From a bacterium (GTDB lineage Bacteria > Bacillota_I > Bacilli_A > RFN20 > CAG-288), in NCBI GenBank assembly GCA_963621825.1, contig CAVFFP010000004.1:71718-135717 (forward strand): a stretch of 64,000 nt of DNA. Reading direction: 5' to 3'. The position numbers and the translations under genes were made by a program. Under the pieces are notes generated by a model. The model was given only the letters and a program-made list of their open reading frames with translations. It had not been told where the DNA came from and did no database searches. Below are positions 15,216-32,757 of the stretch, one piece after another. Position 1 is the first letter of the stretch. The number at the start of each line of letters is the position of its first letter.

Positions 15216-15226
15216 TCGTTAAACAT

Positions 15227-15324
15227 AAAAGCCTTGATGAATGTTCTCTATGTCTAGAACACACCTTCAAGGCTTTTCTTGTGCACTGAAAAAGCACCTT
15301 TCGTTTTTTGTGAAAGGTGCTTTT
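15227..15324. terminator. Two Rho-independent terminator hairpins between convergent lipoprotein genes
   Basis: aaaagccttga...tcaaggctttt followed by TTTTCTT (15227-15280). Perfect 13-bp stem aaaagcacctttc / gaaaggtgctttt (15290-15324) with T-runs on both strands. Confidence 0.6.
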
Positions 15325-15327
15325 AAT

Positions 15328-17016: not shown

Positions 17017-18743
17017 GCTAAGGATCCAGCAGAATCGGTTTCATAATCGGAAATCGTCTTGGAGAAGAACTTATTTCCGTTTGTGAAGCCATCACCGACT
17101 TCTGTATTACCGTTTACGAATGTATCGGCTTCAAAATAGAGATTGACAGTGCCAGTGGTAGCGTAGACGGTTCTGAAAGCGACAGAACCGATGCTTGTTA
17201 CAGACTTAGGAAGGAAGACGTAAGTTAACTTCGTGCAGCAGAAGAAGGCACTGTCTTTGATTGTAGTGACGCTATTAGGGATGAGGACTCTTCTCAGCTC
17301 AGAGCAGCTGTTGAAGGAACTGGTTCCAATCTCGAGGAGTGTCTCAGGGAGAGTGATTTCCATCATTGCGGAGCAACCCATGAAGCAAGTATCAGCGATA
17401 GTAGTAATCTTTGTCTTGGATAAGTCGAGAGTGGATAAAGAGGTGCATCCATTGAAGGCGGAGACACCGATCTTGGTGATGTTTTCACCTAAATCGATTG
17501 AGGTAAGAGCACGGCAGTTTGCGAATGTCTTATCACCGATCTCGGTGATTGCAGAAGGAATGTTGATGGACTTTAAGCTAGTGCAGGCATTAAAGGCTTC
17601 ACTTCCGAGTTCTGTGATAGACTCCGGAAGAGATAAGGTGGTAAGACCGACATCTCCTGCGAAGGCTCTTGAACCAACGCGAGTGATAGAGTTGTTCAAA
17701 GTGACGCTAGTGAGCTTGGAACAGTTCATGAAGCAGTCATCCGGAATTTCAGTATAAGTGCCTTTGATGGTGACATTGACAAGAGCGGAATCGTAATAGA
17801 AGAGACCTTTAGAAAGTTTTGTAAGGCTTTCCGGGAGGGTGACTTTCAAGATGGAAGTATTTTCGCTTAAAGCTAAATCTTCTACTTCTGTAAGTTGAGT
17901 CGCTTTATCAAGGGAAAGGCTTGTCAAAGATCTGACAGCAGCAATCGAACGATAGCCTAAATGCTTCAGATTGCTATCCTTGCTGATGGAGATTGCAGTG
18001 AGCACCGTATTTCCGTAGAAGGCGTAATCGGCAATGTACTCGACTTCGCTAGGAAGATCGAAAGAGGTGAAGTTCAATCCGGCAGGATAGACATAGAGAG
18101 TCTTTTTGTCGTTGCTATAAAGAACGTTGCTCTCCGTAAGGAAGTGTTCGCTTCCGCTAGCGACTTTGATCTTCTTGATGTTGAAATCGAGGTTGAAGAC
18201 ACCAGATCCTAATTTCTTCAAAGATTTCGGAAGGGTGATTGTAGTAAGGCTTGGGCAGTATTTGAAGGCGGAATCATCGATTTCCTCAAGTCCTTCCGGA
18301 AGGGTCAGCTCGTCGAGCTTACTGTCTGAGGAGAGACCTAAGAAGGCTTCTTTTCCGATCTTTCTCAAAGAGCGAGGAAGAGTGAGAGAGTCGATGGTCG
18401 AATAACGGAATGCGGCTTCTCCAATCTCTTTGACTGGTAATCCCTGGTAGATATCCGGAATGACAATGTCGTATTCGACTGAGAGGTAGTCTGTGACGAT
18501 ATAGTAAGATTCTGTCTCATCCAGAGTCATGACAATACCGCCGGTCATGTCCTCTTCCGGAATGATAGATTCTGATGTGGTATCTTTGCCAGTGGTATCG
18601 GTGTTAGTTGTATCGCTGACCTGATTATTACTAGTGGTAGGATTTGTGCTCTCTTTGTTTCCGCATGCGATTAAAGATAAGGAAAGGAGAGATAGTGCGA
18701 CAATTCCAAATTTCTTGTTTTTCATAATAATTGATCCTTTCAT
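17013..18743 (-). CDS. Surface lipoprotein with BspA-type leucine-rich repeats
   Basis: Lipobox LSLIACGN. Repeated units of the form LPESITELGSEAFNACTSLKSINIPSAITEIGDKTFANCRALTSIDL (LRR_5/BspA type). An alternative start at 18724 (MKNKKFG) has an AAAGGA RBS. Confidence 0.75.
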   Translation of the reverse strand: MKGSIIMKNKKFGIVALSLLSLSLIACGNKESTNPTTSNNQVSDTTNTDTTGKDTTSESIIPEEDMTGGIVMTLDETESYYIVTDYLSVEYDIVIPDIYQGLPVKEIGEAAFRYSTIDSLTLPRSLRKIGKEAFLGLSSDSKLDELTLPEGLEEIDDSAFKYCPSLTTITLPKSLKKLGSGVFNLDFNIKKIKVASGSEHFLTESNVLYSNDKKTLYVYPAGLNFTSFDLPSEVEYIADYAFYGNTVLTAISISKDSNLKHLGYRSIAAVRSLTSLSLDKATQLTEVEDLALSENTSILKVTLPESLTKLSKGLFYYDSALVNVTIKGTYTEIPDDCFMNCSKLTSVTLNNSITRVGSRAFAGDVGLTTLSLPESITELGSEAFNACTSLKSINIPSAITEIGDKTFANCRALTSIDLGENITKIGVSAFNGCTSLSTLDLSKTKITTIADTCFMGCSAMMEITLPETLLEIGTSSFNSCSELRRVLIPNSVTTIKDSAFFCCTKLTYVFLPKSVTSIGSVAFRTVYATTGTVNLYFEADTFVNGNTEVGDGFTNGNKFFSKTISDYETDSAGSLA

Positions 18744-20249
18744 TTATTCATGTGGAACGCAGAAGGAAGGGATGGTAGTTGTGTTGTAATCTTTGATTGT
18801 AGTTGTATAGGTACGTGTTGCGTAGACGGTCGTTGTGGAATCATCAAGATAGTAATTTCCAGTCAAAGAGTTTTCGAAATTCTTAAATGTTCCGTCCTTG
18901 TTCAGATTGATTGTGAAGTCACCGCTTGTCGGCTGATTGATGTATTCCTCAAAGGTGTTCATGGAAAGCATGGCAAGAGTTTTGTAAGTAGTATATGGAG
19001 TAAAGGAGTTGTCCAAGTTGTCTTTGAAGCATTCGACAGCAAGACTTCCGATCTTCGGCGCACAGTCGAGGAAGCTATCTCCGATTTCAGAGTCAGAGGA
19101 GATACCCCAATATTTCTTCAGTTCATCTTTTCTTACGAAAGCGTGAGTGTCATCCGCCATATAACGGTAGATGTAGGTCTTTCCGCCTTCAAACTGATAG
19201 GCGAGATTGTACTTGTATTCCGTATATTCGTCATCATCTGTTTCTGGAGCGATGAGACCGGTGAACTCATAGGTGTTATAGATGATCTGGTTTTCGAAAT
19301 CGACTAAGAATTCATAGGAGGTTCCACTAAGCTGAGAAACATCATAGCTGACATCGATATGCATGGTGTAGTTCTTCATATCGGTATTGTCATAGCGATA
19401 CGGTTTTAAAGCCTCAGAGAGAGTATCATGACCGTCTGTATGCTCTAAAGGCACGATTTCACGAGGCTCTGTCATTCCAAGGTCAGAAACATCGAGTTCG
19501 AACATGACACCTTCATAATAGTAGGTTCCATCATCTTCGCTGATTTCAAGCTCAAGGATGAAACGGAACTGATCGATTTCATCTCCGTTGAAATGGAGAG
19601 CGAACTCGCTGACAGTCGGAGTGTAATCATAATCTCCGTAATAAGGGTGACTTGGTGTATATCCAGGAAGTCCAGTAGTCTGATATCCAGTGAGATAGTA
19701 GACAATCTGGGAGGCGAGAGTGCTGTATTTTGTGGAAATGAGATACCAGTTCGGTTTTTCACGGATGGCGCTGAGGCATTCGACCTTCAGTTCACGGAAA
19801 GGTGTATCCATGACTTCCGCATATTTCTGAGAGGTCTTAGTCTCTACGATCTCATTGTCGAGAGGATTGAGCGTTCTTGAATAAAGGTAGCCGTCATCAC
19901 CGGCGAAGAAATTTTCTTCTGTTAAGGTTTCACCTGTGATGTAATCTGCCTCTGAATAATAGTAAGCAGTGGAATCGATCTCTGCGAGAACATCATACTC
20001 ATTTTGAGTATCATTGGTTCCGTCATAGGTCTGATGGCTGAGCTTTCCGGTCAAGGTGAAGCTTTGAGTGAGATCTTCTAATGCATAGGTGAGCTGCTCG
20101 TAAACATTCGGTTTTCTGCTGCTGGATGCGGATTCCGATTGTTTGTCGGTGGTTTCCTGAGAATCGATAGCAGAGTCACTGTTTGTGGTACCTTGACATG
20201 CACATAGTGCAAGCATTGTAAGTATCAACGGGATTTTGTTTTTCTTCAT
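18744..20249 (-). CDS. Lipoprotein (501 aa), function unknown; first gene of a three-gene lipoprotein operon
   Basis: Signal peptide MKKNKIPLILTMLALCACQG. AAAGGAGG RBS upstream. Its stop abuts the start of the next gene. Confidence 0.7.
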   Translation of the reverse strand: MKKNKIPLILTMLALCACQGTTNSDSAIDSQETTDKQSESASSSRKPNVYEQLTYALEDLTQSFTLTGKLSHQTYDGTNDTQNEYDVLAEIDSTAYYYSEADYITGETLTEENFFAGDDGYLYSRTLNPLDNEIVETKTSQKYAEVMDTPFRELKVECLSAIREKPNWYLISTKYSTLASQIVYYLTGYQTTGLPGYTPSHPYYGDYDYTPTVSEFALHFNGDEIDQFRFILELEISEDDGTYYYEGVMFELDVSDLGMTEPREIVPLEHTDGHDTLSEALKPYRYDNTDMKNYTMHIDVSYDVSQLSGTSYEFLVDFENQIIYNTYEFTGLIAPETDDDEYTEYKYNLAYQFEGGKTYIYRYMADDTHAFVRKDELKKYWGISSDSEIGDSFLDCAPKIGSLAVECFKDNLDNSFTPYTTYKTLAMLSMNTFEEYINQPTSGDFTINLNKDGTFKNFENSLTGNYYLDDSTTTVYATRTYTTTIKDYNTTTIPSFCVPHE

Positions 20250-21616: not shown

Positions 21617-21668
21617 AAGAAAGCAAGAAAGAAAAAGCATATGCCACAGATTATGACATATGCTTTTA
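21617..21668 (-). terminator. Rho-independent terminator ending the CooC/Hgd-like operon
   Basis: Stem aagcatatg / catatgctt with a 13-nt loop, followed on the minus strand by a T-rich run. Confidence 0.5.
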
Positions 21669-21669
21669 T

Positions 21670-22377
21670 TCATTGATTTGCTTTATGAATCGCTCTCATA
21701 CCTTCGATTTCATCGCAGATATCGCGGAAGGAACAGGTTCTGCAGTCCATCTTCAGCTTCTTCATGATGTGATCTAAGGTGACTGTGATTCTTTCGCTCT
21801 CCTTGGAGAGTTCAAGAAGCTTGTTGTGCGGGAAATTAGGAGCAGTGATGAAGACCTGACGGACATAGCGGACATGAGCTTCCTTCTTGAACTGCTTGAG
21901 GAAGGACATTCCGATATCCTTGAAAGAGAGACCATCCTTAATCGCATCATCGGATACACAGGCACCTTCTCTTAGAAGATTGGTGTTCACCTTCAGCATA
22001 TAGCCTTCTGGATTGACTTTATAGCGTCTGTATTCAATGTTGCGGAAGATACGGTAATACTCCTGATCCTTAACATCATTCTCATTGTCGATTTCAAAGA
22101 GATAGATGTGGGAGAAAGGAACATCTCCTTTTAAGTCTTTCAGGTCATTGCCGATCAAGGCGATGGAATCCTTGCCTAAAGCGTTAGTCTGACTTGTGTA
22201 TCCGTAGAAATAGGATGACGGAAGAGAAGAATCACCTAAATGAATCCTGCAGTCCTCAGAAAAGAGGAATACTTTGCTCTCGCTTTCCTTCCAAGAAGAT
22301 TCAAGAGGAAGTTCTTTCGTTTCGAAAGGAGAAGTAAGAGAGAGGACATCATCGATGCATTTCTGATAGAGTTCCAT
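21670..22377 (-). CDS. Hypothetical 235-aa protein, last gene of the CooC/Hgd-like operon
   Basis: I recognise no family. C-terminal CRTCSFRDIC. Its start lies 2 nt after the stop of the upstream small ORF. Confidence 0.5.
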   Translation of the reverse strand: MELYQKCIDDVLSLTSPFETKELPLESSWKESESKVFLFSEDCRIHLGDSSLPSSYFYGYTSQTNALGKDSIALIGNDLKDLKGDVPFSHIYLFEIDNENDVKDQEYYRIFRNIEYRRYKVNPEGYMLKVNTNLLREGACVSDDAIKDGLSFKDIGMSFLKQFKKEAHVRYVRQVFITAPNFPHNKLLELSKESERITVTLDHIMKKLKMDCRTCSFRDICDEIEGMRAIHKANQ

Positions 22378-22378
22378 A

Positions 22379-22558
22379 TTACTCTAAATGGCGGTTTCTC
22401 TTTCTCTTATCGTATTTCTTATTGATCCACTTTTGAATCGGAACGAGCATTTTGCTGTCGAGGTTGAAGAAATAGACGACGAAGAGAAGAAGGAAGACTA
22501 AAAGGATGAAGCCGAGAATGGAGCCTAATACAATCAGTAAAATTACCCACCAAGCCAT
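22379..22558 (-). CDS. Putative small membrane protein (59 aa), not in the ORF track (below length cutoff)
   Basis: Translation MAWWVILLIVLGSILGFILLVFLLLFVVYFFNLDSKMLVPIQKWINKKYDKREKPPFRV has one strongly hydrophobic TM helix plus a basic tail. It exactly fills the gap between the activase stop and the start of the next gene (TAA-T-ATG). Confidence 0.35.
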   Translation of the reverse strand: MAWWVILLIVLGSILGFILLVFLLLFVVYFFNLDSKMLVPIQKWINKKYDKRKRNRHLE

Positions 22559-22559
22559 A

Positions 22560-23357
22560 TTAGTTTGCCATGCCTTTCTGTCTAGCGTATTCGGCAGCGC
22601 CTAAAGCACCCATGAGCTGAGGATCGATAGGAAGATCTTTCACCTTGATGTGAAGGACCTGTTCGATTGCCTTCTTCAAACCGAGGTTCTTAGCGCAGCC
22701 ACCAGTCAAAGCGATGGAGTCGGTAGCACCGGCTTTCTTAGCCATGACGAAGCAGCGCTTTGCAACGGAAGCCATGATGCCAGCGGCAATCTCTTCCATC
22801 GGTTTGCCTTCTCCGACAAGGGAGATGACTTCCGATTCACAGAAGACGGTGCACTGTGAGGTGATCGGAATGACGTTCTTTGCGGTCAAAGACAACGAAC
22901 AGAAGTCATCGAGATCCATCTCGAAGCTTCTGGCCATAGCCTCGAAGAAACGACCAGTACCGGCAGAGCATTTGTCGTTCATGGCAAAGTTCATGACGGT
23001 GCCATCCTTAGGATCGATGGCGATGCCTTTGACGTCCTGACCGCCGATATCGATGATGCTGGTGATTGTAGGATCAGAGACATGGACACCCATAGCGTGG
23101 CAGGAGATTTCGGAGATGTTTTCATCAGCGAAAGGAACCTTGTTTCTTCCGTATCCGGTACCGATGAGGTAGGTGAGGTCTTCAATCTTGTTGATGCCAT
23201 CGACCTGAGCGATGGTTTCTTCAAGAGCAATTCTTGCACTTTCGACAGGATTGATTTTGGACTTTAAGGTCTTGTTGGCGACCATTTTTCCATTTTCATC
23301 TAAGATAACGCATTTTGTATAGGTTGAACCTGCGTCGCATCCACCAAAATATTTCAT
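22560..23357 (-). CDS. HgdC/HadI-type ATP-dependent [4Fe-4S] activase of 2-hydroxyacyl-CoA dehydratase (BadF/BadG/BcrA/BcrD ATPase family)
   Basis: 265 aa. Near-colinear similarity to HgdC: DAGSTYTKCVIL, CHAMG, IIDIGGQDVK, NDKCSAGTGRF, LTGGCAKN. AAAGGAG RBS upstream. Confidence 0.9.
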   Translation of the reverse strand: MKYFGGCDAGSTYTKCVILDENGKMVANKTLKSKINPVESARIALEETIAQVDGINKIEDLTYLIGTGYGRNKVPFADENISEISCHAMGVHVSDPTITSIIDIGGQDVKGIAIDPKDGTVMNFAMNDKCSAGTGRFFEAMARSFEMDLDDFCSLSLTAKNVIPITSQCTVFCESEVISLVGEGKPMEEIAAGIMASVAKRCFVMAKKAGATDSIALTGGCAKNLGLKKAIEQVLHIKVKDLPIDPQLMGALGAAEYARQKGMAN

Positions 23358-23371
23358 GTTGTTTTACTCCT

Positions 23372-24919
23372 TTACCAACGATTGACATCGTCCATATCGA
23401 CTAAGGATTCATCGAGAGGTGTTTCACGAAGAACCGTCTTCATGTAACGGTTGACATCTTCTCTCATATCTTTTCTCGTGGCCTTTGTCGGATTCATCAA
23501 GGCGTGATAGACCCAAACGATATGGATGCCTCTCTTTCTGCCTTCCTCTTCCAACAAGCCGTGATAGCCAGCCATGGATTTGCATCCGATGTGTTCATAC
23601 ATGATGACCATGTCGGCTTTGTATTCTTCACAATACTGCCAGAGCTGTTCGACACCGACTTCATAACCGCCATTGGAGTGGTTACGCATAATCATATTCA
23701 TATTGTATTCGCCTAAGTCGAGAAGTGCCTGGTCATGGTCTTCGTAGTTGATCGGCTTGGTGAGAGTGAAGGAGAGCATGTCGCAAAGACAAACGATACC
23801 CCAGCAGTTGGAAAGCCACTGGTTGAAGGCGGTATAGTACTGAGCGTGAACACCCCAGACAAGAGCGCGGTGACGGATTTCCTTGATCGGGAGATGCTTT
23901 TCCTTGTAGGCTTTCTTTGCAATGTCCGTGATCTGCTGATCAAGCTTTAAGAAGGACGGATCTCTTCCAGAGATGACCATGTATTCGGCATCGCGGTAGA
24001 GCATGATGTTGTTGTTGACGACCTGCGGGTATTCGGTCTTGTTCATTTCCATCCACTCTTCGAAGAGTTTGTTCTGGGCATTGTATGTCTTCATGTTCTT
24101 AGCGAAGGCATCCCAATCCCATTTTTCACCGGTATGCTTTTCAATGAATTTGATGGCTTCGACAATCTGATCTCTGGAATAGGCTAAGACGGATTTCTGC
24201 TGATGACGCATCGGAGCGGCCATGGTGAAGGAGGGAAGATCATCGTGTCTGTCTTCAATCTGGTTACCCATCAAAGAGCCGTCGCAAGTTGTGTTGCAGT
24301 GAACGGCACAGACACCGCAGATCGGATAATCCTCATCGATGGCACAGCCTAATTCTGCACAAGGCATCGGGCAGACATCGGAAGGAATCTGGAACTCTTC
24401 AGCGACTTCGATGTAGTGAAGGACACCGTCCTGAGCAATGGTGCTTCCGGTGTAGATAGCAGGAACTTCCTTTGAGAGGAACTTCAGGTTCGGGAAGCCG
24501 GTCGCAATGACCATCATTCCGTTTTCATCCATGATGACGAGCTTCTTATTCAGTTCATCATATTTTCCCTTTTTGTTTCCGATTCTCTTATCACATTTGA
24601 ATAAGGTGTCCATTGTCTGAGTTAGATGTTCGACAATGGAGTCGTATTGGATGTGTCCAATTCTAAGCTGCGGACCTCTTACACCTTCTAAGTGTCTATC
24701 GATATAGTCGAAGGCGGCAAGATAGTTGCCGAACCAACGGTAAGTGAACATCGCCTTGAGAGTCGTTGGCTTCATGATGAATTTTCCCATGACCATGAGG
24801 TTCTTCAGCCAACGGGAGAAATCATACATTGTATCTTTGAAACCACGCCATTCACGATGGGTCGCTGTCTTCTTGCCAGGCTTATTGGTGCTGCCTAGTC
24901 CTTTTTTCTTCTTATCCAT
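23372..24919 (-). CDS. 2-hydroxyacyl-CoA dehydratase / benzoyl-CoA reductase family subunit (HgdA-like, 515 aa) with a Cys-dense motif
   Basis: HgdA/HadB-like length and composition. Motif CPMPCAELGCAIDEDYPICGVCAVHCNTTCDG has 7 Cys in 31 residues. AAGGAGG RBS upstream. Confidence 0.75.
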   Translation of the reverse strand: MDKKKKGLGSTNKPGKKTATHREWRGFKDTMYDFSRWLKNLMVMGKFIMKPTTLKAMFTYRWFGNYLAAFDYIDRHLEGVRGPQLRIGHIQYDSIVEHLTQTMDTLFKCDKRIGNKKGKYDELNKKLVIMDENGMMVIATGFPNLKFLSKEVPAIYTGSTIAQDGVLHYIEVAEEFQIPSDVCPMPCAELGCAIDEDYPICGVCAVHCNTTCDGSLMGNQIEDRHDDLPSFTMAAPMRHQQKSVLAYSRDQIVEAIKFIEKHTGEKWDWDAFAKNMKTYNAQNKLFEEWMEMNKTEYPQVVNNNIMLYRDAEYMVISGRDPSFLKLDQQITDIAKKAYKEKHLPIKEIRHRALVWGVHAQYYTAFNQWLSNCWGIVCLCDMLSFTLTKPINYEDHDQALLDLGEYNMNMIMRNHSNGGYEVGVEQLWQYCEEYKADMVIMYEHIGCKSMAGYHGLLEEEGRKRGIHIVWVYHALMNPTKATRKDMREDVNRYMKTVLRETPLDESLVDMDDVNRW

Positions 24920-24921
24920 GG

Positions 24922-26118
24922 TTACTTGGCCTCCTTGTCTTTCTGAATCTTCTTGATTTCAAGCGCTTCGATGAAGGCCTGGATTCTTGTTCTCAACTGA
25001 CCGGACTGACCGACGTTGTATGGGCGGTCGATGGAAAGAGTCTGATAACCATATTCATTCTGCATGACAGCGTTCATGAAGGCTCTTCCATATCCCCAAT
25101 AATCACAGAATTTGATCTGTTCGATGATAATGCCGTCGACATGATATTCTTTGCCAATCTTATCGACATAGGCGTGTCTTTCGTTGACTTTCTCCGTTGT
25201 GAGGAAACGAGGGCACTGTCCGCTTTCCATATAATAGCGGCAGACCTGAGTAAGAGCATCTTCCTCATCGTTGAGGATGATTTCCTGTCTTCCCGGAAGG
25301 GAGCCAAAGCAATATCTGTCAGCGACGACGACAAGTCCGCAGTCCTCTGCCAATTTGATCAGCTGCGGATCATCGATTTCACTGCCGACCATAGCGACAC
25401 GGCAACGATAGGTACCCTTCTTGTCCGGGACACGGTTTCTGACCTCTTCCAAAGTCTCCGTGAGTTTCTCGATGAGTTTATCCTTCGGGCAGCAGTATGT
25501 CGCTAAGCAAAGGACAGCAAACTCATAACCGGTGATTCTAGGGCATTCTTCTTTTCTGAAGTCGCCGATTTCGGTGATGAGCTTGGAAATCTTATTTTGC
25601 TCTTCGACAGCTTTTCTGATGGCTGCATCACTGATATCGATATTGTAGTGTTCGTTAAGAGGCTTTAAGACGTGTTCCTGCATCTGAAGGATATAGTGCT
25701 TCAATGTGACGTCATCTGATTTCATCGGAACATCGACATAGGAAGCGAAGAATCCTTCCTTCGGGCAGCAATCGAGATGCTCGATGTTTTCGACACATCG
25801 GTTCATCATTGCACATGCTTCCGGTGCGATGATGCCATCAAGGAAACGGAATCCGCCTTCTAGTGCTCTCTCTAAGATGGCACGACAGGCTTCACAGAAA
25901 ATAGGGGAAAGATAATAGTTTCCCATTTCCGTAGAACCTGTTCTTGGAGCACGAAGTCTTACAGAGAAGATGCCAGGGAGGTTAAGAAGAGGTTCCGGAA
26001 TCTGATAGCAGACATGTCCGATTGCCTTTCTTCCTTCGTTCTGTGCTTCTTCGATGAGATCGTTGTTGGAATTCTCTAACAGCTTTTCAAAATAGTATAG
26101 GTGCTTCAGGTCTCTCAT
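24922..26118 (-). CDS. 2-hydroxyacyl-CoA dehydratase / benzoyl-CoA reductase family subunit (HgdB-like)
   Basis: About 398 aa from the ATG at 26118 (AAAGGAGAG RBS). The ORF-track start at 26133 is GTG. Multiple conserved Cys, including CxxC. Confidence 0.7.
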   Translation of the reverse strand: MRDLKHLYYFEKLLENSNNDLIEEAQNEGRKAIGHVCYQIPEPLLNLPGIFSVRLRAPRTGSTEMGNYYLSPIFCEACRAILERALEGGFRFLDGIIAPEACAMMNRCVENIEHLDCCPKEGFFASYVDVPMKSDDVTLKHYILQMQEHVLKPLNEHYNIDISDAAIRKAVEEQNKISKLITEIGDFRKEECPRITGYEFAVLCLATYCCPKDKLIEKLTETLEEVRNRVPDKKGTYRCRVAMVGSEIDDPQLIKLAEDCGLVVVADRYCFGSLPGRQEIILNDEEDALTQVCRYYMESGQCPRFLTTEKVNERHAYVDKIGKEYHVDGIIIEQIKFCDYWGYGRAFMNAVMQNEYGYQTLSIDRPYNVGQSGQLRTRIQAFIEALEIKKIQKDKEAK

Positions 26119-26129
26119 ATGCTCTCCTT

Positions 26130-26891
26130 TCACTCTTGAAGTATATGAATTTTAGTTAATGCTTCTTTGGTACCCTTGACGATGCTGCTGTCCTTAGGAA
26201 GATAGAAGACATTCTCACCTTCCATATCATAACGGGCAAGTTCATCATCAGAAGGAATCTTGGACAATACCTTCATATTGTCAAAGTGATAATCCTCTTC
26301 CATAGCCTGTGAGGAGAGGCGGTTTAAGATGACACCAATCTCTTCATACATGACAAGGTCATCGGCAACAGTCTTGATGGTCTTGATGACCTGCTGACCC
26401 TTTTTGGACTGATCACTGATCAAAAGGAGATGGGTAACCTTTTCCATGACTCTTCTGTTAATCTGCTCAATGCCGGCTTCTCCGTCGATGACGACAAAAT
26501 CATAATGGGAAGAGATAGAAGAGATGACATCCTTGAGATAAGTGTTGATTTTGCAGTAGCATCCGCTTGCCTCCGGTCTGCCGATGGCAATAAAGGTAAA
26601 ACCGTTGGAATGAACCATAGCCTCTTCGATGGAATAGCTTGCGTTTCCTAAAACTTCAACAACGGCATTTTTGCCCTGTTCGCTTGCAGCGATGGCCTCT
26701 TTTCTTACATCATCGATTGTCTTATCGTATTCGATTCCAAGTGCGGTGGATAAACCGACTGCGGGATCTGCGTCAATAGCCAAAATCTTCTTGTCCGGAT
26801 AATTGTCGACCAAAAGTCTGACAATGCACGCGGCGATGGAAGTCTTTCCGACTCCACCTTTTCCAGCAACTGCAATAATAGATGTTTTCAT
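26130..26891 (-). CDS. CooC-type MinD/ParA-superfamily ATPase (metallocentre insertase-like)
   Basis: Deviant Walker A AVAGKGGVGKTS at the N-terminus of the 254-aa form starting at 26891 (AAAGGA RBS). CxC motif GCYC, as in CooC/AcsF Ni-insertases. The ORF-track start at 26981 is probably an upstream extension. Confidence 0.65.
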   Translation of the reverse strand: MKTSIIAVAGKGGVGKTSIAACIVRLLVDNYPDKKILAIDADPAVGLSTALGIEYDKTIDDVRKEAIAASEQGKNAVVEVLGNASYSIEEAMVHSNGFTFIAIGRPEASGCYCKINTYLKDVISSISSHYDFVVIDGEAGIEQINRRVMEKVTHLLLISDQSKKGQQVIKTIKTVADDLVMYEEIGVILNRLSSQAMEEDYHFDNMKVLSKIPSDDELARYDMEGENVFYLPKDSSIVKGTKEALTKIHILQE

Positions 26892-27029
26892 CGCGAATAC
26901 AGTCCTTTCAATTTGAGTATAAGAATATGATACAAAAAGGGCTTTCAATTTGAAAGAGGTTTCACGAAAAATTTTGCGCATTTGTGCAATAAAATGTTCA
27001 AAATTTTATATTTGAATCTTTTTATTTCC

Positions 27030-27060
27030 ATGAAAAAAGGAGCCAAATGGGCTCCTTTGA
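27030..27060 (-). terminator. Rho-independent terminator after the dipeptidase gene
   Basis: 9-bp stem aaaggagcc / ggctccttt with a 5-nt loop. On the minus strand a T6 run follows. Confidence 0.6.
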
Positions 27061-28535: not shown

Positions 28536-28738
28536 AATTGTCTCCTTAGTAAATGATCGGTATCCATTTTAAATGTTTTCTCGTTTTATATCTATGTATT
28601 TGATAAATCAAATAAAAGTAGAACAGCAAAAGCGCTTTTTCATAAAAGTTTTTTAATGAAATGAGAGAAAACACTTGAAGTGATGTTGAAAATATTATAT
28701 ACAATACAAGTTTTAAGGTTCAATTAAGGAGAATGTAT

Positions 28739-30871
28739 ATGAAAAACAAGATAAAGATTATGTTGTTGCCGCTTCTTGCTCTGATGAGTCTCACTGTCGT
28801 ATCCTGCGGAGGAAACAGTGACTCCAGCAAGCCTTCCGATTCCGAAAGTCAGACCACTGCAGATAAGGAATCTGAATCCAAGAAGGAAGAGACAAAATAC
28901 CAGGTCAGCTTCAATAAGTCCGACAAGGTCGAACTTTCTGTCACTGGATTAGAGAGCGATAAAGCTCTTCCGGGAAGTGAAGTCACCTTCACTGTCACAA
29001 GTCAGGAGGAAGAAATCCTTTCTGTCGATTCTTCCGTTGCTCATTTGGATTATGAGAATGGTGTCTATTATTTCACCATGCCGAATCATGATGTCACAAT
29101 CGATGTCGTTTCTGAGGCCTATGGAGATCCTTCTATTCTTGATGTTAAGGATGTCGATACTACCTCTCTTCCGAACAACGTTTCTTCTTTTACCGCATAT
29201 TTAGAAAAGTCGATGGCTGTGGAAGGCACATATTTCTCTTCCGCTCATGTTGTAAACAACAACTTCAATGGAACTGCTGCCTGGTACGATTACAACGTCA
29301 AAGCCGCTAAGAATGATATGGTTCTCATCTCTGGACATAAGAAGAACTACCTCAGTGATACCATGAGTACGTTCTACTCCAAGGAAATCGGAAGAGAAAA
29401 TGATATCTATTACACTATCACATCTACAACATCTTTAGGTTCCTCTGCTAATACAATTGCCAATGATTATGTATTCAAAAACATCATTTCCGATGATGCT
29501 GCAGCCGTTGGCGTTAATCAGATTAAGGAAAGTGATGCAAAAGCCGAATACTCATCCTATCAGGGCGCCGCTGTTATTTATAACTTTTTCTTCAGCGAGA
29601 ATGCTTCTTTTAAGCTGAATGAATGGACACATGAGTTACAATCCTATACTTATTATCTAAAGGATATGGAAAAGACCGTATCCGATGATAAAAAGTCAAT
29701 CCGTTTTGATTTGACTGCACTTTTTTGTAATTGGAACGGAACTTCAATTTTTAATATATCGTTGGAGTTTGACGGCGACAATTTCATGCAGAATGCTAGC
29801 ATTAGCAAGACAGACTACGACTCCGCCGATTGTGATTCCACGACAAAGATGCCTCTAGATGGCAAAACTGGAAAACTGATGGCAACCTACAATCTTGAAA
29901 TGACTCGTGGTTATAAGTCCACGATGGAAAAAACTGATATCTCTTCCTTTGCAATGGATAGTTATGATGTTTCTATCTCCTACTCCATTAACGGGGAAGA
30001 AAAAGAAACAGATAGCAATGATGTTGTTGTTGATAATGGTTCTGAACTCAAGTTTGCTTTTAACTCCAATGATGATAAGGCAACCTTCGTTGAACCTACA
30101 TTGAAGGAGGTTGAGGAAGAAGATGATTACGTCGATTTGAAAACACTCACCGTTCTCAAAGAGGGTGAATTCACTTTAGTTTTCGACAATGGATTCGGTG
30201 TAGAGAAGAAAGTTAAAATCAAATCCGTGAAGCCGAAAGCGGCCTCCATCTCTGTCAGTGCACCTTCTAGTGTCTATCTGAATGAAACAAAAAACATGAC
30301 AGTCTCTATTCTCCCTGAGAAAGCAAATCAGGATGTCACCTTCACAAAGAAGGATACTTCTGTTGGTGACGCAACCATCACTAAGAATGATGATGGCACC
30401 TACGCGATTCAGGGTGTAAAACTCGGCGAAGTTTCCTATACCGTCACCAGCGTTGGAAATGATGAGATTACAGAAGAGTTCACATTCAATGTCATTGAAA
30501 AACCGGATGCCGAAACTTTTAAAAACAATGTTTTCACAAAGACTTTCTACGGTGAATCTACAAGCTACAAGGCCGTTGCTAATTTCAATGAGGAAGGCTC
30601 TGGCGAATTCAAGACTGCTTCTAATGGTTATTATTCTTACTATGAAGCCGTAAGAACGTTCCATTGGACATTCGACGAAGCTTCTTTGACCTTCACTATC
30701 ACGGATGCTACTGGAAGCTATTATGATGGAAGAGGCTTCTTTACCTTCTCTGCTGTCACAGCAGAAGAAGCTATCGGTTCCTTCGTTGAATATAACTATT
30801 ATGGCAATAAGACAGAGTTCACTCTCAATATGACTTCTCAGGACAGAAAAGATCTTTCTGAATTCAACTGA
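28739..30871 (+). CDS. Surface lipoprotein with C-terminal Big_2-like domain
   Basis: Lipobox LTVVSCGGN. AAGGAGA RBS favours the ATG at 28739 over 28733. Ig-like segment near residues 480-570. Confidence 0.7.
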   Translation: MKNKIKIMLLPLLALMSLTVVSCGGNSDSSKPSDSESQTTADKESESKKEETKYQVSFNKSDKVELSVTGLESDKALPGSEVTFTVTSQEEEILSVDSSVAHLDYENGVYYFTMPNHDVTIDVVSEAYGDPSILDVKDVDTTSLPNNVSSFTAYLEKSMAVEGTYFSSAHVVNNNFNGTAAWYDYNVKAAKNDMVLISGHKKNYLSDTMSTFYSKEIGRENDIYYTITSTTSLGSSANTIANDYVFKNIISDDAAAVGVNQIKESDAKAEYSSYQGAAVIYNFFFSENASFKLNEWTHELQSYTYYLKDMEKTVSDDKKSIRFDLTALFCNWNGTSIFNISLEFDGDNFMQNASISKTDYDSADCDSTTKMPLDGKTGKLMATYNLEMTRGYKSTMEKTDISSFAMDSYDVSISYSINGEEKETDSNDVVVDNGSELKFAFNSNDDKATFVEPTLKEVEEEDDYVDLKTLTVLKEGEFTLVFDNGFGVEKKVKIKSVKPKAASISVSAPSSVYLNETKNMTVSILPEKANQDVTFTKKDTSVGDATITKNDDGTYAIQGVKLGEVSYTVTSVGNDEITEEFTFNVIEKPDAETFKNNVFTKTFYGESTSYKAVANFNEEGSGEFKTASNGYYSYYEAVRTFHWTFDEASLTFTITDATGSYYDGRGFFTFSAVTAEEAIGSFVEYNYYGNKTEFTLNMTSQDRKDLSEFN

Positions 30872-32757
30872 TGAAAAAGAATTGTATTGGATTATCGTTT
30901 CTTGTTCTGTCACTAGTCGCCTGTCAAGGTGGAGGAGATTCCTCCGCCTTGAAACCGACGGAATCCGCAAATGCGGAGAAAACGGAGACAACAGGCGAAA
31001 CAACTTCTCAACAAAAAGAGAAACTTGAATTTGAACCAGCTAAGACAATCAGTAATCTTTTCGACTATCTGAATACAACAGGAAGAGAAATAGAGAATAC
31101 GGATGGTATCATCTTTGACAGAAACTATTATTCCTATGAGGTCGGATATTATACGTTCAATACGATAGAGAAGAGTGAGAATGGTGAGTCTTTTGATAAT
31201 GATTCCTATTTCGTTTATGGAACGGAGTCTAAGACAACCACTTATGACTATAAGGATGATGTCGATAAGGTAGAAGACTACTATATGTGCCTGAATCAGT
31301 TGGATGGAAATGACTACTACTCCATTGTGGATTATGATGATGGCAAAGATAGAGATACGGCAAACAAAGAGACAGTTTTGGTGACAAATAGGGATTCCTA
31401 TTTGGCAAAGACGAATCTTAATGCTTTGGATTCCCTTTATACTTTCTATAAATCGAAAGTCTCCAAGAACATCATCAAAGGCGTCGATGATATCACACCG
31501 AATATCACGGATAAAAATACGGTTGAGTATCATATCGCTCAGGGATGGGAAGAGACAATCGGCGATTACAAGTATAAGTATGCCGCTATCATCGATCTTT
31601 CTTTGGATTACAAGGGAAGACTGACCAAGTATAGTTATAACTTCAAAGAATATCAGCCCTCTACGGAAGAAGGCGGCAATGATTTTCTTCTCAGTGAAAT
31701 CAAGGATGAAGTCGAAATCCAGTTCGGAAATAAGATCACATACGATTATTTCGAAAAGGTCCAAAATGGTGAAAAAGCAATTGATCCTCTTGATTACTTC
31801 ATGACGGATTACACTCCGGTATTGTTGTCCTGGGATGGTGTCGGAACAGAGAAGACTAAAGAGGATGCTCTTAGTTTCCCTATCAACATGTATGTTGAGG
31901 CTGAGGCCACAGAGATTGTTCCTGAAAAGGCTTTGGATACGAAGTTGACTGTCACTGATAGCACGGATAAAAGTGTTATCTCTGTCACATCTTCTGGTAT
32001 TGTAAAAGCAGTCGGATTAGGTGAAACCACCCTTACCATTCAATCGGAATCCGGTGTCACTACGAAGATGAATGTCAAGGTTGTCTCTCCTGCTTTACAG
32101 GAGATTGTCGCTAAAACTTATTCTACGTATCATTTCAAAGGGGATACCGATACTCTCTATATCTATAAGACTCCTTCGAATTCCTTAGAGGAGATTGAGG
32201 TCGTCTCATTGACAGAGGATGTCATTGAAGTTGTCAAAGACAAAGATGGTGATTATGCTTTGCATAACATCGGAGTCGGAGAAGGAACCGTCGAAGTAAG
32301 AAGCAAGACGAATCCTACAGTGAAGTGCACGGTCTCTTATTCTGTCGTAGAGAAGAAGACAGTCGAAGAAGTCAAAGCCAATGTCGTCGGAACATGGGAT
32401 GGAGACCTTCCGAATACTAGTGGTACAGGGATGGTAAAGGATGCCGCTACAGTTATCTATAATGATGATGGCACCGGTAGCTTCACTTTGAATAGTTCCG
32501 ATACGGGTTACACCTTTGAAGTCGGAAAAGCCTATCCATTTACCTATACCTTCTTAGAAAACGGAAGATATGTGGATAGACCTGTCTCCCTTACGATGTC
32601 TACGATTACTTTGGATCATGGACAGGTTGTCTGGACGTATTCCGCAAATGCTGCTGACTTCTATTACACGGGCGAGAACGCAAATATCATCTTCGCAACG
32701 GGAAATTCAGAAGAATACGGCGCAATGGTGCAGTTATCTGCAAGACGTGTCGCTTAA
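30871..32757 (+). CDS. Surface lipoprotein with two Big_2-like domains
   Basis: Lipobox LSLVACQGG. Its start overlaps the previous stop by 1 nt (TGATG). Repeated VTxxDxxVISVTSSGxVKAVGLGETTLT-like segments. Confidence 0.7.
   Translation: MKKNCIGLSFLVLSLVACQGGGDSSALKPTESANAEKTETTGETTSQQKEKLEFEPAKTISNLFDYLNTTGREIENTDGIIFDRNYYSYEVGYYTFNTIEKSENGESFDNDSYFVYGTESKTTTYDYKDDVDKVEDYYMCLNQLDGNDYYSIVDYDDGKDRDTANKETVLVTNRDSYLAKTNLNALDSLYTFYKSKVSKNIIKGVDDITPNITDKNTVEYHIAQGWEETIGDYKYKYAAIIDLSLDYKGRLTKYSYNFKEYQPSTEEGGNDFLLSEIKDEVEIQFGNKITYDYFEKVQNGEKAIDPLDYFMTDYTPVLLSWDGVGTEKTKEDALSFPINMYVEAEATEIVPEKALDTKLTVTDSTDKSVISVTSSGIVKAVGLGETTLTIQSESGVTTKMNVKVVSPALQEIVAKTYSTYHFKGDTDTLYIYKTPSNSLEEIEVVSLTEDVIEVVKDKDGDYALHNIGVGEGTVEVRSKTNPTVKCTVSYSVVEKKTVEEVKANVVGTWDGDLPNTSGTGMVKDAATVIYNDDGTGSFTLNSSDTGYTFEVGKAYPFTYTFLENGRYVDRPVSLTMSTITLDHGQVVWTYSANAADFYYTGENANIIFATGNSEEYGAMVQLSARRVA

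Follow-up and report, generated by a model that had tools for sequence, protein, structure and literature searches.

Results

Organization and conservation of the operon

The window, i.e. the whole 64-kb stretch of DNA analysed here, contains six minus-strand genes between positions 21670 and 26891, which the initial annotation had described as a tightly packed operon with terminators on both sides. The open reading frames (ORFs) were confirmed, with junctions that comprise, in the direction of transcription, a 4-nt overlap followed by gaps of 2, 14, 1 and 1 nt (a spacing of -4 to +14 nt), and a hairpin was found on either side, in good agreement with that description:

27036..27058, minus strand: hairpin that terminates the preceding C69 peptidase gene (9-bp stem with 5 G-C pairs, then TTTTTT)
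26927..26954, minus strand: candidate sigma-70-type promoter, TTCAAA-16-TATCAT (weak, 9/12 consensus matches)
26130..26891, minus strand: CooC/AcsF-type P-loop ATPase (253 aa)
24922..26133, minus strand: β subunit of the HGD-D family, BzdN type (403 aa)
23372..24919, minus strand: α (catalytic-type) subunit of the HGD-D family (515 aa)
22560..23357, minus strand: ASKHA activase of the HgdC/HadI/MbdQ type (265 aa)
22379..22558, minus strand: small membrane subunit (59 aa)
21670..22377, minus strand: truncated acetyl-CoA synthase, mini-ACS (235 aa)
21633..21667, minus strand: intrinsic terminator at the end of the operon (a 16-bp stem and a 3-nt loop, with the T-tract TTTTCTTTCTT after it)

Judging from the sequence, the hairpin at 27036..27058 is the upstream boundary of the operon. 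Promoter-like sites of the kind found at 26927..26954 are as numerous in the region as expected from shuffling, and the one argument for this candidate is that it lies downstream of the terminator and ahead of the start codon. For the CooC-like gene we chose the ATG that gives MKTSIIAVAGKGGVGKT (253 aa) rather than the alternative upstream ATG at 26981, because the orthologues have 253-255 aa. All 45 plausible ORFs of 150 aa or more that the window contains were scanned against Pfam, and no CoA-transferase, acyl-CoA dehydrogenase (ACAD), CODH or full acetyl-CoA synthase (ACS) was detected, as the initial annotation had also noted.

All six genes are present in the same order in 49 of the 51 loci from species-representative genomes that had enough upstream DNA to be counted, and the flanking genes are unrelated, hence the arrangement is not due to chance and the previously noticed pairing of a CooC-type ATPase with HgdAB-like subunits is a recurrent one. 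The gene for mini-ACS was found in at least 286 species, and the cassette is conserved across hundreds of species of anaerobic bacteria, most of them from the gut. Its carriers, which are mostly MAGs with unreliable taxon labels, comprise Bacilli-type MAGs, Christensenella, Oscillospiraceae, Lachnospiraceae, Treponema, Vallitalea and Clostridium algidicarnis DSM 15099. No published description of such an operon was found in the literature, of which our coverage is incomplete; to this extent the earlier statement that the pairing had not been described stands.

The reductase core and the membrane peptide

The families and the α/β labels assigned in the initial annotation proved correct. The β subunit matches HGD-D with an E-value of 8.5e-79, and its best match in the PDB is BzdN (8S02_B, 2e-23), whose cluster ligands C36, C73, C100, C263, C293 and C327 align with C42, C80, C107, C275, C307 and C343 of β, all six invariant in 52 orthologues. 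An [8Fe-9S] double-cubane cluster is therefore predicted for this subunit. The α subunit (HGD-D, 5e-39) exhibits a conserved N-terminal helical extension of ~110 residues, three invariant cysteines (C183, C212 and C446) and a near-invariant one (C372). In comparisons of its AF2 model (pLDDT 84) with solved structures, HadB (3O3M_A), BzdO (8S02_A) and MbdO rank above the β-type chains, HadB being the best structural match; α is thus a catalytic subunit of the HadB/BzdO type, with a predicted [4Fe-4S] site formed by three cysteines, which it retains like BzdO and HadB. Six BzdN-type ligands in β together with three cysteines in α indicate a core that resembles benzoyl-CoA reductase (BCR) and not a classic dehydratase, which bears out the earlier suggestion of a double-cubane-type reductase. 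The top NCBIfam match for both α and β is the double_cubane model, with 126 and 49 bits against a cut-off of 350, and the scores of the cassette proteins in the Bzd/Bcr equivalog models are far under the cut-offs.

The activase matches BcrAD_BadFG (5e-52) and TIGR00241 (216.9 bits, cut-off 125.4), and among proteins of known structure MbdQ (1e-59), HadI (4e-57) and HgdC (3e-56). Its C130 and C169, invariant in 59 orthologues, are predicted to ligate the bridging [4Fe-4S] cluster. The 59-aa peptide comprises a single N-terminal hydrophobic helix, a conserved Y-F-x-N-L-D-x-K motif and a basic tail, with Y29, N32, D34 and K36 invariant in 62 orthologues; its ORF exists even in loci where phmmer missed it, and in 16 loci it is duplicated alongside a second α-β pair.

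The 235-aa protein is a truncated acetyl-CoA synthase

The protein encoded by the last gene, which the initial annotation had left as unknown, is a previously unrecognised, cut-down relative of ACS that comprises the middle (A2) domain and a part of the cubane motif of the A-cluster. Its ancestry is supported by three independent routes. Pfam CdhC is matched by 9 of 13 close homologues; a profile of 98 mini-ACS sequences retrieves only ACS/CdhC chains from the PDB (E-values 1e-11 to 1e-9), with C212 and C215 aligned with the A-cluster ligands C506 and C509 of ACS; and all 22 top Foldseek matches of the AF2 model (pLDDT 92) are ACS/CdhC, with no other protein matched below E 0.1.

The C-terminal motif DC212xxC215x5C221D...H231 (CxxCx5C) is predicted to bind a [4Fe-4S] cluster. 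Its three cysteines are the only residues invariant among the 98 diverse members, while the position of the fourth ligand varies (His in 78 of the 98 representatives and Cys, Asp or Arg in the others), and the C-terminal hairpin is flexible in the model (pLDDT 56-76). The protein ends before the position of the Cys-Gly-Cys motif, with which ACS binds its two Ni atoms, and so lacks it; nor are Arg383, His386 and Trp405 conserved, to which acetyl transfer and CoA stacking have been assigned in the ACS of C. autoethanogenum. Mini-ACS evolves fastest of the six proteins (31-35% identity where the activase has 73-80%), which fits an accessory role and weakens any claim of catalysis.

The CooC-type ATPase and its probable partnership with mini-ACS

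The product of the first gene contains a deviant Walker A motif (GKGGVGKT) and C111-Y-C113, both invariant across 52 orthologues. In Pfam and NCBIfam it reaches only generic models (CbiA, AAA_31, MinD, ParA), below family-specific cut-offs, with weak matches to Fer4_NifH and, below the cut-offs, to ParA/NUBPL. Among proteins of known structure it is closest, along its entire length, to CooC1 of C. hydrogenoformans (3KJE, 1.3e-15), which leads the next match, ArsA (5e-7), by eight orders of magnitude, and the CYC of the ATPase aligns exactly with the Ni-binding CYC of CooC1. The assignment to the CooC type, with a predicted CxC metal site, is thereby upheld.

In more distant cassettes the gene order differs, with five other arrangements, and the genes for mini-ACS and the CooC-like ATPase remain neighbours. 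They are adjacent or overlapping in loci L086, L088, L089, L091 and L092 and on contig P0146, all of which vary in the number of α-β pairs, the number of activases and gene order, and the CooC-like proteins whose genes adjoin mini-ACS in other architectures are 44-55% identical to the one studied here. Locus L092 (a 4.4-kb contig) contains a DUF8180-CooT-CooC-miniACS module with no α-β genes, and L079 only CooC, the activase and mini-ACS, with no α-β genes nearby. The two genes are thus the tightest unit of the cassette, and since they stay together where the rest is rearranged, the CooC-type ATPase most likely serves mini-ACS and not the HgdAB-like subunits.

Nickel-related genes were found in a minority of loci, and the surroundings of most loci are free of nickel-trafficking genes. 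CooT (PF10133; 60.5 and 52.8 bits, cut-off 27) lies beside the cassette in four of them (L040, L068, L074, L090), paired with a small His-rich protein; in L090 and L092 it is directly upstream, with 2 nt between its end and the start of the CooC gene in L090. ABC transporter genes of the SBP_bac_5 type occur near the cassette in L024, L030, L057 and L090, and one CooT-bearing locus also has a Nik/Opp-type transporter.

In L081 the cassette is directly followed by a flavoprotein gene (Fer4 + Fer4_20 + Pyr_redox_2) and then by HypA-HypB, and a flavoprotein with the same domains adjoins the cassette in L032, L050, L057 and L090. A comparable orphan Ni-chaperone set, HypA/HypB, accompanies the putative isoprene reductase IsrA of Acetobacterium wieringae, an Fe-S reductase of unsaturated compounds. 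IsrA and the cassette belong to unrelated protein families, and the neighbour is called IsrA-like by its domain content and HypAB neighbours alone; the nearby HypA/HypB probably belong to this flavoprotein and not to the cassette.

Discussion

Comparison with known systems

Class I BCRs of the Bzd/Mbd type (BzdNOPQ, MbdONPQ; 8S02, 9GAI) resemble the cassette in the six-Cys [8Fe-9S] β subunit, the three-Cys [4Fe-4S] site of α and the delivery of electrons by ASKHA ATPases. However, their activase is a P/Q heterodimer, as opposed to the presumed homodimer encoded by the single activase gene of the cassette, their loci contain genes for CoA ligase, ferredoxin and downstream ring cleavage that are missing from the window, and the published accounts covered here mention none of the additional components, i.e. 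the membrane peptide, mini-ACS and the CooC-type ATPase. The double-cubane cluster protein DCCP of C. hydrogenoformans, with DCCP-R as its reductase (6ENO, 7YYL), is similar in its single-gene activase partner and its double-cubane cofactor, but it forms a homodimer whose subunits each bear the full Cys motif, in contrast to the heterodimer of the cassette, whose α has only 3-4 of those cysteines, and it lacks CooC or ACS-like partners.

The 2-hydroxyacyl-CoA dehydratases (HgdAB-HgdC, HadBC-HadI, FldBC-FldI, LcdAB) share the α-β HGD-D heterodimer and the single homodimeric activase; they differ from the cassette in the [4Fe-5S] site that takes the place of the double-cubane ligands in β, in their CoA-transferase/dehydrogenase context and in lacking the three extra genes that are conserved with the core. 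The bacterial plasmalogen synthase PlsA/PlsR, likened here at the superfamily level only, consists of large fused proteins with BCR/HAD family and activase domains and no CooC or ACS-like partners; its substrate, a non-CoA membrane lipid, shows that enzymes of this family can act at the membrane, a location that the conserved transmembrane peptide suggests for the cassette as well.

The other half of the cassette resembles AcsB/CdhC with AcsF as nickel insertase, mini-ACS exhibiting the fold of the ACS middle domain and the first two cubane cysteines, and the CooC/CooT/CooJ maturation set, with the CooC fold and CxC site in the ATPase and CooT in some genomes. Unlike ACS, mini-ACS has no A1 domain, A3 body, Cys-Gly-Cys Ni site or conserved acetyl-transfer residues, and unlike ACS systems, the cassette has no CODH, corrinoid protein or methyltransferase, its CooC/mini-ACS pair being linked to enzymes of the BCR/HAD type.

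Alternative interpretations

Mini-ACS could be a plain [4Fe-4S] electron carrier to the activase or β, with a nickel-independent CooC-like ATPase that acts, for instance, as an assembly chaperone or loads Fe-S clusters in the manner of Mrp/NBP35. The restriction of invariance to three cubane cysteines, the loss of Cys-Gly-Cys and the scarcity of nickel-trafficking genes agree with this possibility, as does the constant need of the net reductases of the family for low-potential electrons. BCR clusters often encode a ferredoxin of their own, and in L088 and on the P0146 contig the next gene is of the Fer4 family. We nevertheless consider it rather unlikely, for the CxC is strictly invariant and aligned with the Ni site of CooC1, CooT stands directly upstream in two loci, a 235-aa ACS fold would be an odd choice for a simple ferredoxin, and the ParA/NUBPL matches are weak and under the cut-offs.

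In the initial annotation the HgdAB-like subunits were proposed as the target of the CooC-type ATPase, a dedicated maturase that would assemble or insert their clusters; the 235-aa protein would then be a bystander or scaffold. Such a maturase might fuse two cubanes as NifH does for the P-cluster, CooC and NifH both being of the SIMIBI class; the ATPase gene overlaps that of the double-cubane β subunit by 4 nt, the two are paired in 49 of 51 loci, and a three-Cys cluster with a variable fourth ligand on a flexible hairpin would suit a carrier or scaffold. In the five other architectures, however, the ATPase gene adjoins mini-ACS and not β, α-β genes are missing nearby in L092 and L079, the accounts of DCCP and BzdNO covered here, both proteins with the same double cubane, mention no CooC-type factor, and the association with CooT favours nickel over Fe-S assembly. 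We regard this proposal as improbable, and less likely than service to mini-ACS.

There is little to recommend an ordinary 2-hydroxyacyl-CoA dehydratase of the Hgd/Had/Fld/Lcd type with its CoA-transferase and dehydrogenase encoded elsewhere and the extra genes incidental, despite the HGD-D and activase matches, the public annotation of these proteins as '2-hydroxyacyl-CoA dehydratase', and the CoA ligase, acyl-CoA dehydrogenase and thiolase-like genes that adjoin distant relatives of the cassette. All six double-cubane ligands are present in β, as opposed to the [4Fe-5S] cluster of HadC, the HadB and HadC equivalog models give 30 and 86 bits where 750 and 700 are required, no CoA-transferase or ACAD recurs across the more than 50 cassette loci surveyed or lies in the window, and the six genes are conserved as a set. 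Finally, that the ATPase serves in positioning or partition like a generic ParA/MinD protein and stands by chance beside a metabolic operon, as the generic Pfam and NCBIfam matches would allow, is effectively refuted by the conservation data, given the aligned and invariant CxC, the lead of CooC1 among solved relatives, the linkage kept in 49/51 loci and in other architectures, and the overlap of the ATPase stop codon with the start of the β gene.

A model of the system

On balance we favour, with moderate confidence, a self-contained, ATP-driven, low-potential Fe-S radical enzyme of the BCR/2-hydroxyacyl-CoA dehydratase superfamily, with an ACS-derived metallocentre module as its accessory. 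The activase dimer would be reduced by reduced ferredoxin or by mini-ACS, and ATP hydrolysis would push an electron into the double cubane of β, which would store and relay electrons onward to the α cluster, where the substrate would be reduced or dehydrated via radical intermediates. Since the double cubane is complete, the reaction would more probably be a net reduction, like that of BzdNO, than a redox-neutral dehydration. The 59-aa peptide may anchor the α-β pair to the membrane on its cytoplasmic side. At the expense of ATP, and in some genomes with the help of CooT, the CooC-type ATPase would load the cluster site of mini-ACS with a metal, for which nickel is the most plausible candidate, the two proteins being putative descendants of an AcsF/ACS maturation pair. 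Mini-ACS itself would be an accessory subunit that the reductase cannot do without, involved in electron entry or in the handling of a ligand or cluster. The six-gene operon may mark a metalloenzyme system that has not been described to date.

Organization of the cassette

The cassette consists of six genes on the minus strand, which encode, in order of transcription, a CooC-like ATPase, beta and alpha subunits, an activase, a transmembrane (TM) peptide and a 235-aa protein referred to here as mini-ACS, a cut-down acetyl-CoA synthase (ACS).

Features of the cassette (positions in the window)
27036-27058, hairpin with T-run at the end of the preceding C69 peptidase gene
26130-26891, minus strand, ORF of the CooC-like ATPase (253 aa)
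24922-26133, minus strand, ORF of the beta subunit (403 aa)
23372-24919, minus strand, ORF of the alpha subunit (515 aa)
22560-23357, minus strand, ORF of the activase (265 aa)
22379-22558, minus strand, ORF of the TM peptide (59 aa)
21670-22377, minus strand, ORF of mini-ACS (235 aa)
21633-21667, terminator with a 16-bp stem, 3' of the last cassette gene

The first two genes overlap by 4 nt and the later junctions leave 2, 14, 1 and 1 nt between genes; for the CooC-like gene the shorter version, with the ATG at 26891, agrees with its orthologues of 253-255 aa. With the ORFs, the tight junctions and the flanking hairpins all found, the six-gene operon proposed in the initial annotation stands, as does its remark that CoA-transferase and dehydrogenase partners are missing, since none is present in the window and none recurs in loci retrieved from other genomes. 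Neither the window nor seven related loci yielded a riboswitch or leader RNA at the Rfam gathering score; in the 5' region of the cassette there are sub-threshold sRNA matches only, which overlap the upstream terminator hairpin.

The surroundings of the cassette in the window comprise genes for a C69 peptidase, a phosphodiesterase, surface proteins, NAD salvage and rhamnose, and a SUF operon. The latter is complete (1589-6186, plus strand; SufC-like ABC ATPase, SufD, SufS cysteine desulfurase, SufU/NifU_N and SufB) and is followed by mnmG (6189-8075). Large secreted or lipoprotein-like ORFs (950, 562, 576, 501, 712 and 628 aa), most of them with no Pfam match, are located in 12363-20249 and 28733-32757, and include a Big_2 domain protein (15328-17016) and a BspA-type LRR protein (17013-18743); this run suggests a host-associated surface repertoire. 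An FMN reductase gene is followed by the NAD salvage genes for NAPRTase, a NadD-like protein and NadE (35834-40552), and a DeoR-regulated rhamnose cluster encodes RhaA, a class II aldolase and an FGGY kinase (42104-46559).

Conservation and modular structure

A scan of one genome per species identified relatives of mini-ACS in 286 genomes. Eighty of the loci were retrieved, and gene order was judged on the 51 that include at least 5.3 kb of upstream DNA. The order CooC-beta-alpha-activase-TM peptide-mini-ACS is found in 49 of these, so that the pairing of a CooC-type ATPase with an HgdAB-like enzyme, noticed in a single genome by the initial annotation, does recur; the two that differ are L043, which has its alpha-beta genes divergent, and L079, with CooC, activase and mini-ACS only. 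Record titles, which for several of the MAGs clearly cannot be trusted, place among the carriers uncultured Bacilli, Candidatus Enteromonas, Christensenella, Oscillospiraceae, Lachnospiraceae, Treponema, Vallitalea and Clostridium algidicarnis DSM 15099. Since the flanking genes vary between lineages, the cassette behaves as a unit. The ORF of the TM peptide is always present, with an invariant Y-x-x-N-x-D-x-K motif after the hydrophobic helix.

A second beta-alpha-TM triplet is found near the cassette in 16 loci, mostly labelled Oscillospiraceae (L041, at 10754-13766, and L045, L047, L051, L056, L058, L059, L066, L067, L068, L069, L070, L072, L073, L074 and L076), and in none of the 16 is it accompanied by a second CooC, activase or mini-ACS. 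The second-copy proteins are 46-48% (beta) and 32-34% (alpha) identical to those of the window; their beta subunit retains the six Cys residues assigned below to a double-cubane cluster and is missing a seventh invariant Cys (C298). Duplication of these triplets without the remaining genes suggests two modules, a catalytic one (alpha, beta and TM peptide) and a shared service one (CooC, activase and mini-ACS).

The subunits diverge to different extents. At 73-80% identity of the activase, identity is 55-64% for CooC, 52-60% for beta, 36-57% for alpha and 31-35% for mini-ACS. In close Bacilli-type relatives, alpha is 87-97% identical to that of the window (23372-24919 compared with L001, L002, L007, L009, L010 and L018) and mini-ACS 48-67%, or 88% in L007. 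This conservation of alpha, the catalytic subunit, is unusual, and purifying selection on it is very strong. At 90% identity alpha forms more than 1000 clusters.

The reductase core

The beta and alpha subunits match the Pfam HGD-D family at 8.5e-79 and 5e-39, respectively. The activase, of the ASKHA fold, matches BcrAD_BadFG (Pfam, 5e-52) and TIGR00241 (NCBIfam, 216.9 bits vs a cut-off of 125.4), and its closest solved relatives are MbdQ, HadI and HgdC (E 1e-59 to 3e-56); its two Cys for the bridging cluster, C130 and C169, occur without exception in 59 orthologues, in the contexts NDKCAAGTGRF and CTVF(A/C)ESE common to HadI, HgdC and MbdQ. The family calls made earlier, an HGD-D alpha-beta pair with an HgdC-type activase, are therefore in agreement with the domain databases and the solved relatives.

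According to the BzdNO paper, the [8Fe-9S] cluster is liganded by Cys36, Cys73, Cys100, Cys263, Cys293 and Cys327 of BzdN, and the [4Fe-4S] cluster by Cys95, Cys128 and Cys380 of BzdO. In a phmmer alignment C42, C80, C107, C275, C307 and C343 of beta fall exactly on the six BzdN positions, and neither 52 orthologues nor the paralogous second copies deviate at any of them. In alpha the only invariant Cys residues are C183, C212 and C446, with C372 conserved at 95%; from their spacing and the alignment with the double-cubane cluster protein (DCCP) we infer that the three would correspond to C95, C128 and C380 of BzdO. The AlphaFold model of alpha (pLDDT 84), predicted with an alignment of database homologues, matches HadB, BzdO and MbdO ahead of DCCP and beta-type chains. 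With six double-cubane Cys in beta and a three-Cys alpha whose model is HadB/BzdO/MbdO-like, the core has its cofactor sites laid out as in class I benzoyl-CoA reductases (BCR) of the Bzd type: a predicted double cubane that would store electrons, and an open-site catalytic cubane.

The subunits nonetheless score far under the NCBIfam cut-offs of the characterized equivalogs (HadB/C, BzdN/O, BcrB/C and double_cubane): 85 bits vs 454 for bzdN, 16 vs 449 for bzdO, 30 vs 750 for HadB, 86 vs 700 for HadC, and 125.9 and 49.2 vs 350 for NF040772, the double-cubane cluster protein. Bzd-type BCRs possess two distinct ATPase subunits, whereas the window cassette has one activase gene, as in dehydratases and DCCP. 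DCCP itself carries the full Cys motif in its catalytic chain, of which the cassette alpha has just three to four Cys. Public records name alpha and beta '2-hydroxyacyl-CoA dehydratase', and such dehydratases also combine an HGD-D alpha-beta pair with an HgdC-type activase; however, they have a [4Fe-5S]-type beta subunit and a CoA-transferase/dehydrogenase context, in contrast to the six double-cubane Cys of the cassette, which has no such neighbours in the window and none that recur in the retrieved loci.

The CooC-type ATPase

The ATPase has the SIMIBI P-loop of CooC/AcsF nickel-insertion ATPases, with a deviant Walker A motif (KGGxGK[ST]) with the signature lysine (GKGGVGKT, residues 10-17), invariant in 52 orthologues. 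Its best full-length solved relative is CooC1 (3KJE) at E 1.3e-15, all others being at 5e-7 or weaker, and in this search against solved structures CooC1 leads ArsA, MinD and Soj by eight orders of magnitude; the protein is closer to CooC than to MinD, ParA, ArsA, Mrp or NifH. C111-Y-C113 coincides in the alignment with the CYC by which CooC1 binds nickel, and is likewise invariant in 52 orthologues. In the CooC/AcsF family this metal-binding Cys-x-Cys is situated at the dimer interface. Pfam and NCBIfam return generic CbiA, AAA_31 and MinD models and no CooC-specific match, and public records name the protein 'AAA family ATPase' or 'CO dehydrogenase maturation factor'. The CooC1 match and the aligned, invariant CxC bear out the earlier assignment to the CooC type, in substance at the expense of a generic ParA/MinD or Mrp placement. 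The ATPase is constantly linked to an ACS-derived protein, with neither a CODH nor a full ACS present as a client in the window or in the retrieved loci.

Mini-ACS, a fragment of acetyl-CoA synthase

Direct Pfam and NCBIfam scans of the 235-aa and 59-aa proteins found nothing at E 0.01 or better, and the ACS link of the former emerged only via family-wide scans and profiles. A word-indexed search returned only 12 clusters of mini-ACS homologues; an exhaustive search returned 548 representatives at E <=1e-3 and 325 at E <=1e-10, nearly all of them stand-alone proteins of 225-260 aa. The Pfam CdhC family (PF03598) is matched by nine of 13 close homologues at E <1 (best 3e-6), with the window protein at 14.3 bits, below the gathering cut-off of 24. 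A profile of 98 sequences compared with the PDB retrieves every ACS/CdhC entry at E 1e-11 to 1e-9 and nothing else below E 1, the match spanning ACS residues about 311-488 (325-488 in a match at about 1e-11), i.e. the middle (A2) domain. The AlphaFold model (pLDDT 92) gives 22 top Foldseek matches that are all ACS/CdhC with probability 1.0, the next one being at E 0.13. The protein left as unknown in the initial annotation is thus ACS-derived; in public records it is a 'hypothetical protein' (NCBI) or, by automatic rule, a 'CO-methylating acetyl-CoA synthase' (UniProt).

A profile of the C-terminal third places the family motif MDC212xxC215 on Y-S-C506-V-L-C509 of the M. thermoacetica enzyme, where C506 and C509 supply the first two of the A-cluster cubane ligands, C509 also forming the bridge to the proximal nickel. 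C212, C215 and C221 are the sole invariant residues across 98 diverse members. The third Cys follows at x5, vs x8 in the four-Cys site of ACS (C506, C509, C518 and C528); His231, at x9 after C221, has the spacing of C518-x9-C528 and is kept in 78 of the 98 representatives and in all 81 cassette orthologues, being elsewhere replaced by Cys228, Asp or Arg. There is no counterpart of the Ni-binding Cys595-Gly596-Cys597, as mini-ACS ends 14 residues past C221 with no further Cys.

In the recent acetyl-CoA complex structure of C. autoethanogenum ACS, Arg383, His386 and Trp405 are assigned to acetyl transfer and adenine stacking. The corresponding positions of mini-ACS, read from the profile alignment, are Y116, Y119 and G138 (Gln in the family profile), and only a basic RVSK motif is kept. 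Lack of conservation of the catalytic Arg, His and Trp speaks against ACS-style CoA/acetyl chemistry, which has been downgraded as a candidate function. By its sequence and predicted structure, mini-ACS is a protein that shares the ACS fold and part of the cluster site, but fails the defining features of ACS.

Distant architectures and the probable client of CooC

Mini-ACS and a CooC-like ATPase also occur together in gene clusters built differently from the cassette.

Distant architectures with mini-ACS and CooC-like genes
L086/L087: 610-aa protein, three HGD-D genes, two activases, mini-ACS, CooC-like
L088: GMC oxidoreductase, 496-aa protein, two HGD-D genes, two activases, mini-ACS, CooC-like, followed by CoA ligase, ferredoxin, AOR, then thiolase-like genes
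L091: like L088, plus sigma-54 regulators, SDR, CoA ligases, acyl-CoA dehydrogenase
P0146 contig: two activases, mini-ACS, CooC-like, HGD-D, Fer4, HGD-D, activase
L089: mini-ACS, CooC-like
L092: DUF8180, CooT, CooC-like, mini-ACS (4.4-kb contig w/o alpha-beta)

The two genes are adjacent or overlapping in every one of these, and at least five arrangements beyond the cassette combine the pair with BCR-like enzymes. The distant CooC-like proteins are 39-55% identical to the window ATPase and retain GCYC, and the beta subunits of the distant clusters have Cys at the six double-cubane spacings. Mini-ACS and CooC are the most tightly linked unit. The initial annotation had CooC maturing the clusters of the HgdAB-like subunits; since the pair stays together across differently built clusters, mini-ACS is the more probable client.

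Two groups of unassigned proteins with no Pfam match may be further cassette components: those of ~830-890 aa directly upstream of the cassette (L060, 2120-4786, and 11 other Oscillospiraceae loci), and helical proteins of 496-610 aa upstream in the two-activase cassettes (L088, 3363-4853; L091, 4314-5813; L086, 550-2382).

Neighbouring genes and a possible link to nickel

As pathway clues most flanking genes were set aside, being lineage-specific housekeeping genes (e.g. QueA, ThiI, Tex, SMC, TRCF and MCP). Only four flanking types recur: enoate-reductase-like OYE+FAD proteins (13 loci), an IsrA-like flavoprotein (5), CooT (5) and SBP_bac_5 transporters (4).

The OYE (Oxidored_FMN) + Pyr_redox_2 protein, enoate-reductase/FadH-like, is encoded directly ahead of the CooC-like gene. 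Its gene shares the strand of the cassette in Vallitalea and C. algidicarnis (L034 and L077), where it stands behind a TetR gene, and is divergent in L040, L041, L050, L052, L074 and L082; such a neighbour would fit an unsaturated product or a redox pathway common to both.

In L090 the gene for CooT (PF10133) ends 2 nt before the CooC-like start, with a DUF8180 protein just upstream of CooT, and downstream lie genes for TetR, an ABC transporter of the Opp/Nik type (SBP_bac_5), HypB and an Fe-S flavoprotein. Three more loci, L040, L068 and L074, have CooT at the side of the cassette; two of these CooT proteins score 60.5 and 52.8 bits in Pfam vs a cut-off of 27. Their N-terminus reads MC..., with Cys2 as the residue that binds Ni in CooT. 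Immediately upstream of CooT there is always a small His-rich protein (DUF8180-like; e.g. MHDHDHSHG..., HNRHHAEELHELAH), which looks like an uncharacterized metal-binding partner of CooT.

Sites of the His-rich small protein upstream of CooT
L040, 10807-11238
L068, 651-1231
L074, 11558-11989
L090, 5016-5430
L092, 950-1355

SBP_bac_5 transporter genes are also found near the cassette in L024, L030 and L057. The CooT and transporter associations concern a minority of loci and are circumstantial.

A flavoprotein of 890-970 aa with Fer4, Fer4_20 and Pyr_redox_2 domains adjoins the cassette in L081 (6034-9982), L050, L057, L032 and L090, and in L081 it directly follows the cassette and is itself followed by HypA-HypB. 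This trio mirrors the published neighbourhood of the putative isoprene reductase IsrA, which has HypA/HypB beside the reductase. HypA/HypB were accordingly discounted as nickel evidence for the cassette, as they follow the IsrA-like flavoprotein and are attributed to it; the cassette and the flavoprotein may form a 'nickel island', with the latter as a second orphan reductase linked to nickel.

Proposed mode of action

Comparison of sequences and structures supports the cofactor-binding residues and the folds, whereas the steps of the mechanism are what we infer. The activase dimer would take up one electron and, on ATP hydrolysis, deliver it to the double cubane of beta, from which electrons would pass to the three-Cys cluster of alpha, the putative site of substrate binding. 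Because the double cubane is complete, net reduction, as in BzdNO, would be favoured over redox-neutral dehydration. The TM peptide would anchor alpha-beta at the membrane, N-out/C-in by the positive-inside rule, a tether that recalls PlsAR, a lipid-modifying member of the family. CooC, with CooT where present, would load a metal beside the mini-ACS cubane via C215, and mini-ACS would then serve the reductase in electron entry or as a ligand- or cluster-handling subunit.

The overall picture of a double-cubane reductase with a CooC-loaded mini-ACS accessory subunit is one that we favour by a little. That the metal is specifically nickel is less likely than not. Rather improbable, in our estimate, is the most far-reaching version, an unrecognized class of Ni-Fe-S enzymes in which a cut-down ACS would carry a Ni-[4Fe-4S] centre built by CooC (and CooT), with the missing thiolates supplied by a partner protein, and would be poised or fed by the ATP-driven double-cubane reductase for organometallic or very-low-potential chemistry, possibly on a membrane-associated substrate. 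The carriers are gut anaerobes, and neither a CODH nor a full ACS is encoded in the window or in the retrieved loci.

Significance

Full-text literature searches, in which the subscription literature is thinly covered, found no published description of the cassette or of the mini-ACS family; the matches concerned CODH surveys, the SAO selenoprotein locus, IsrA and the crystallography program Coot. The core enzyme belongs to a known superfamily. Its combination with a CooC-type ATPase, a membrane peptide and a fragment of ACS, conserved as it is, is to our knowledge new, and there is a real chance that the cassette represents a new class of nickel enzymes. If mini-ACS and CooC do build a metal site, the ACS fold and the nickel-insertion machinery would be used outside the Wood-Ljungdahl pathway, for which we found no description, and, nitrogenase aside, no biological reductant system is known that is stronger than the one to which they would be coupled. 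This would account for CooC genes in loci without CODH, and would correct the 'hypothetical' and 'CO-methylating acetyl-CoA synthase' labels of the 235-aa protein. One carrier is in culture, Clostridium algidicarnis DSM 15099 (L077), with mini-ACS WP_104409775.1 and CooC-like ATPase WP_104409778.1; upstream of its cassette, and on the strand of the cassette, are genes for a TetR regulator and an enoate-reductase-like protein. The finding would also flag a widespread gut activity, with mini-ACS encoded in at least 286 species. Finally, BCR-like enzymes of the two-ATPase kind, encoded in degradation clusters with CoA ligases, have mini-ACS and CooC beside them too, so that anaerobic metabolism of aromatic or alicyclic compounds may in part depend on this pair as well.
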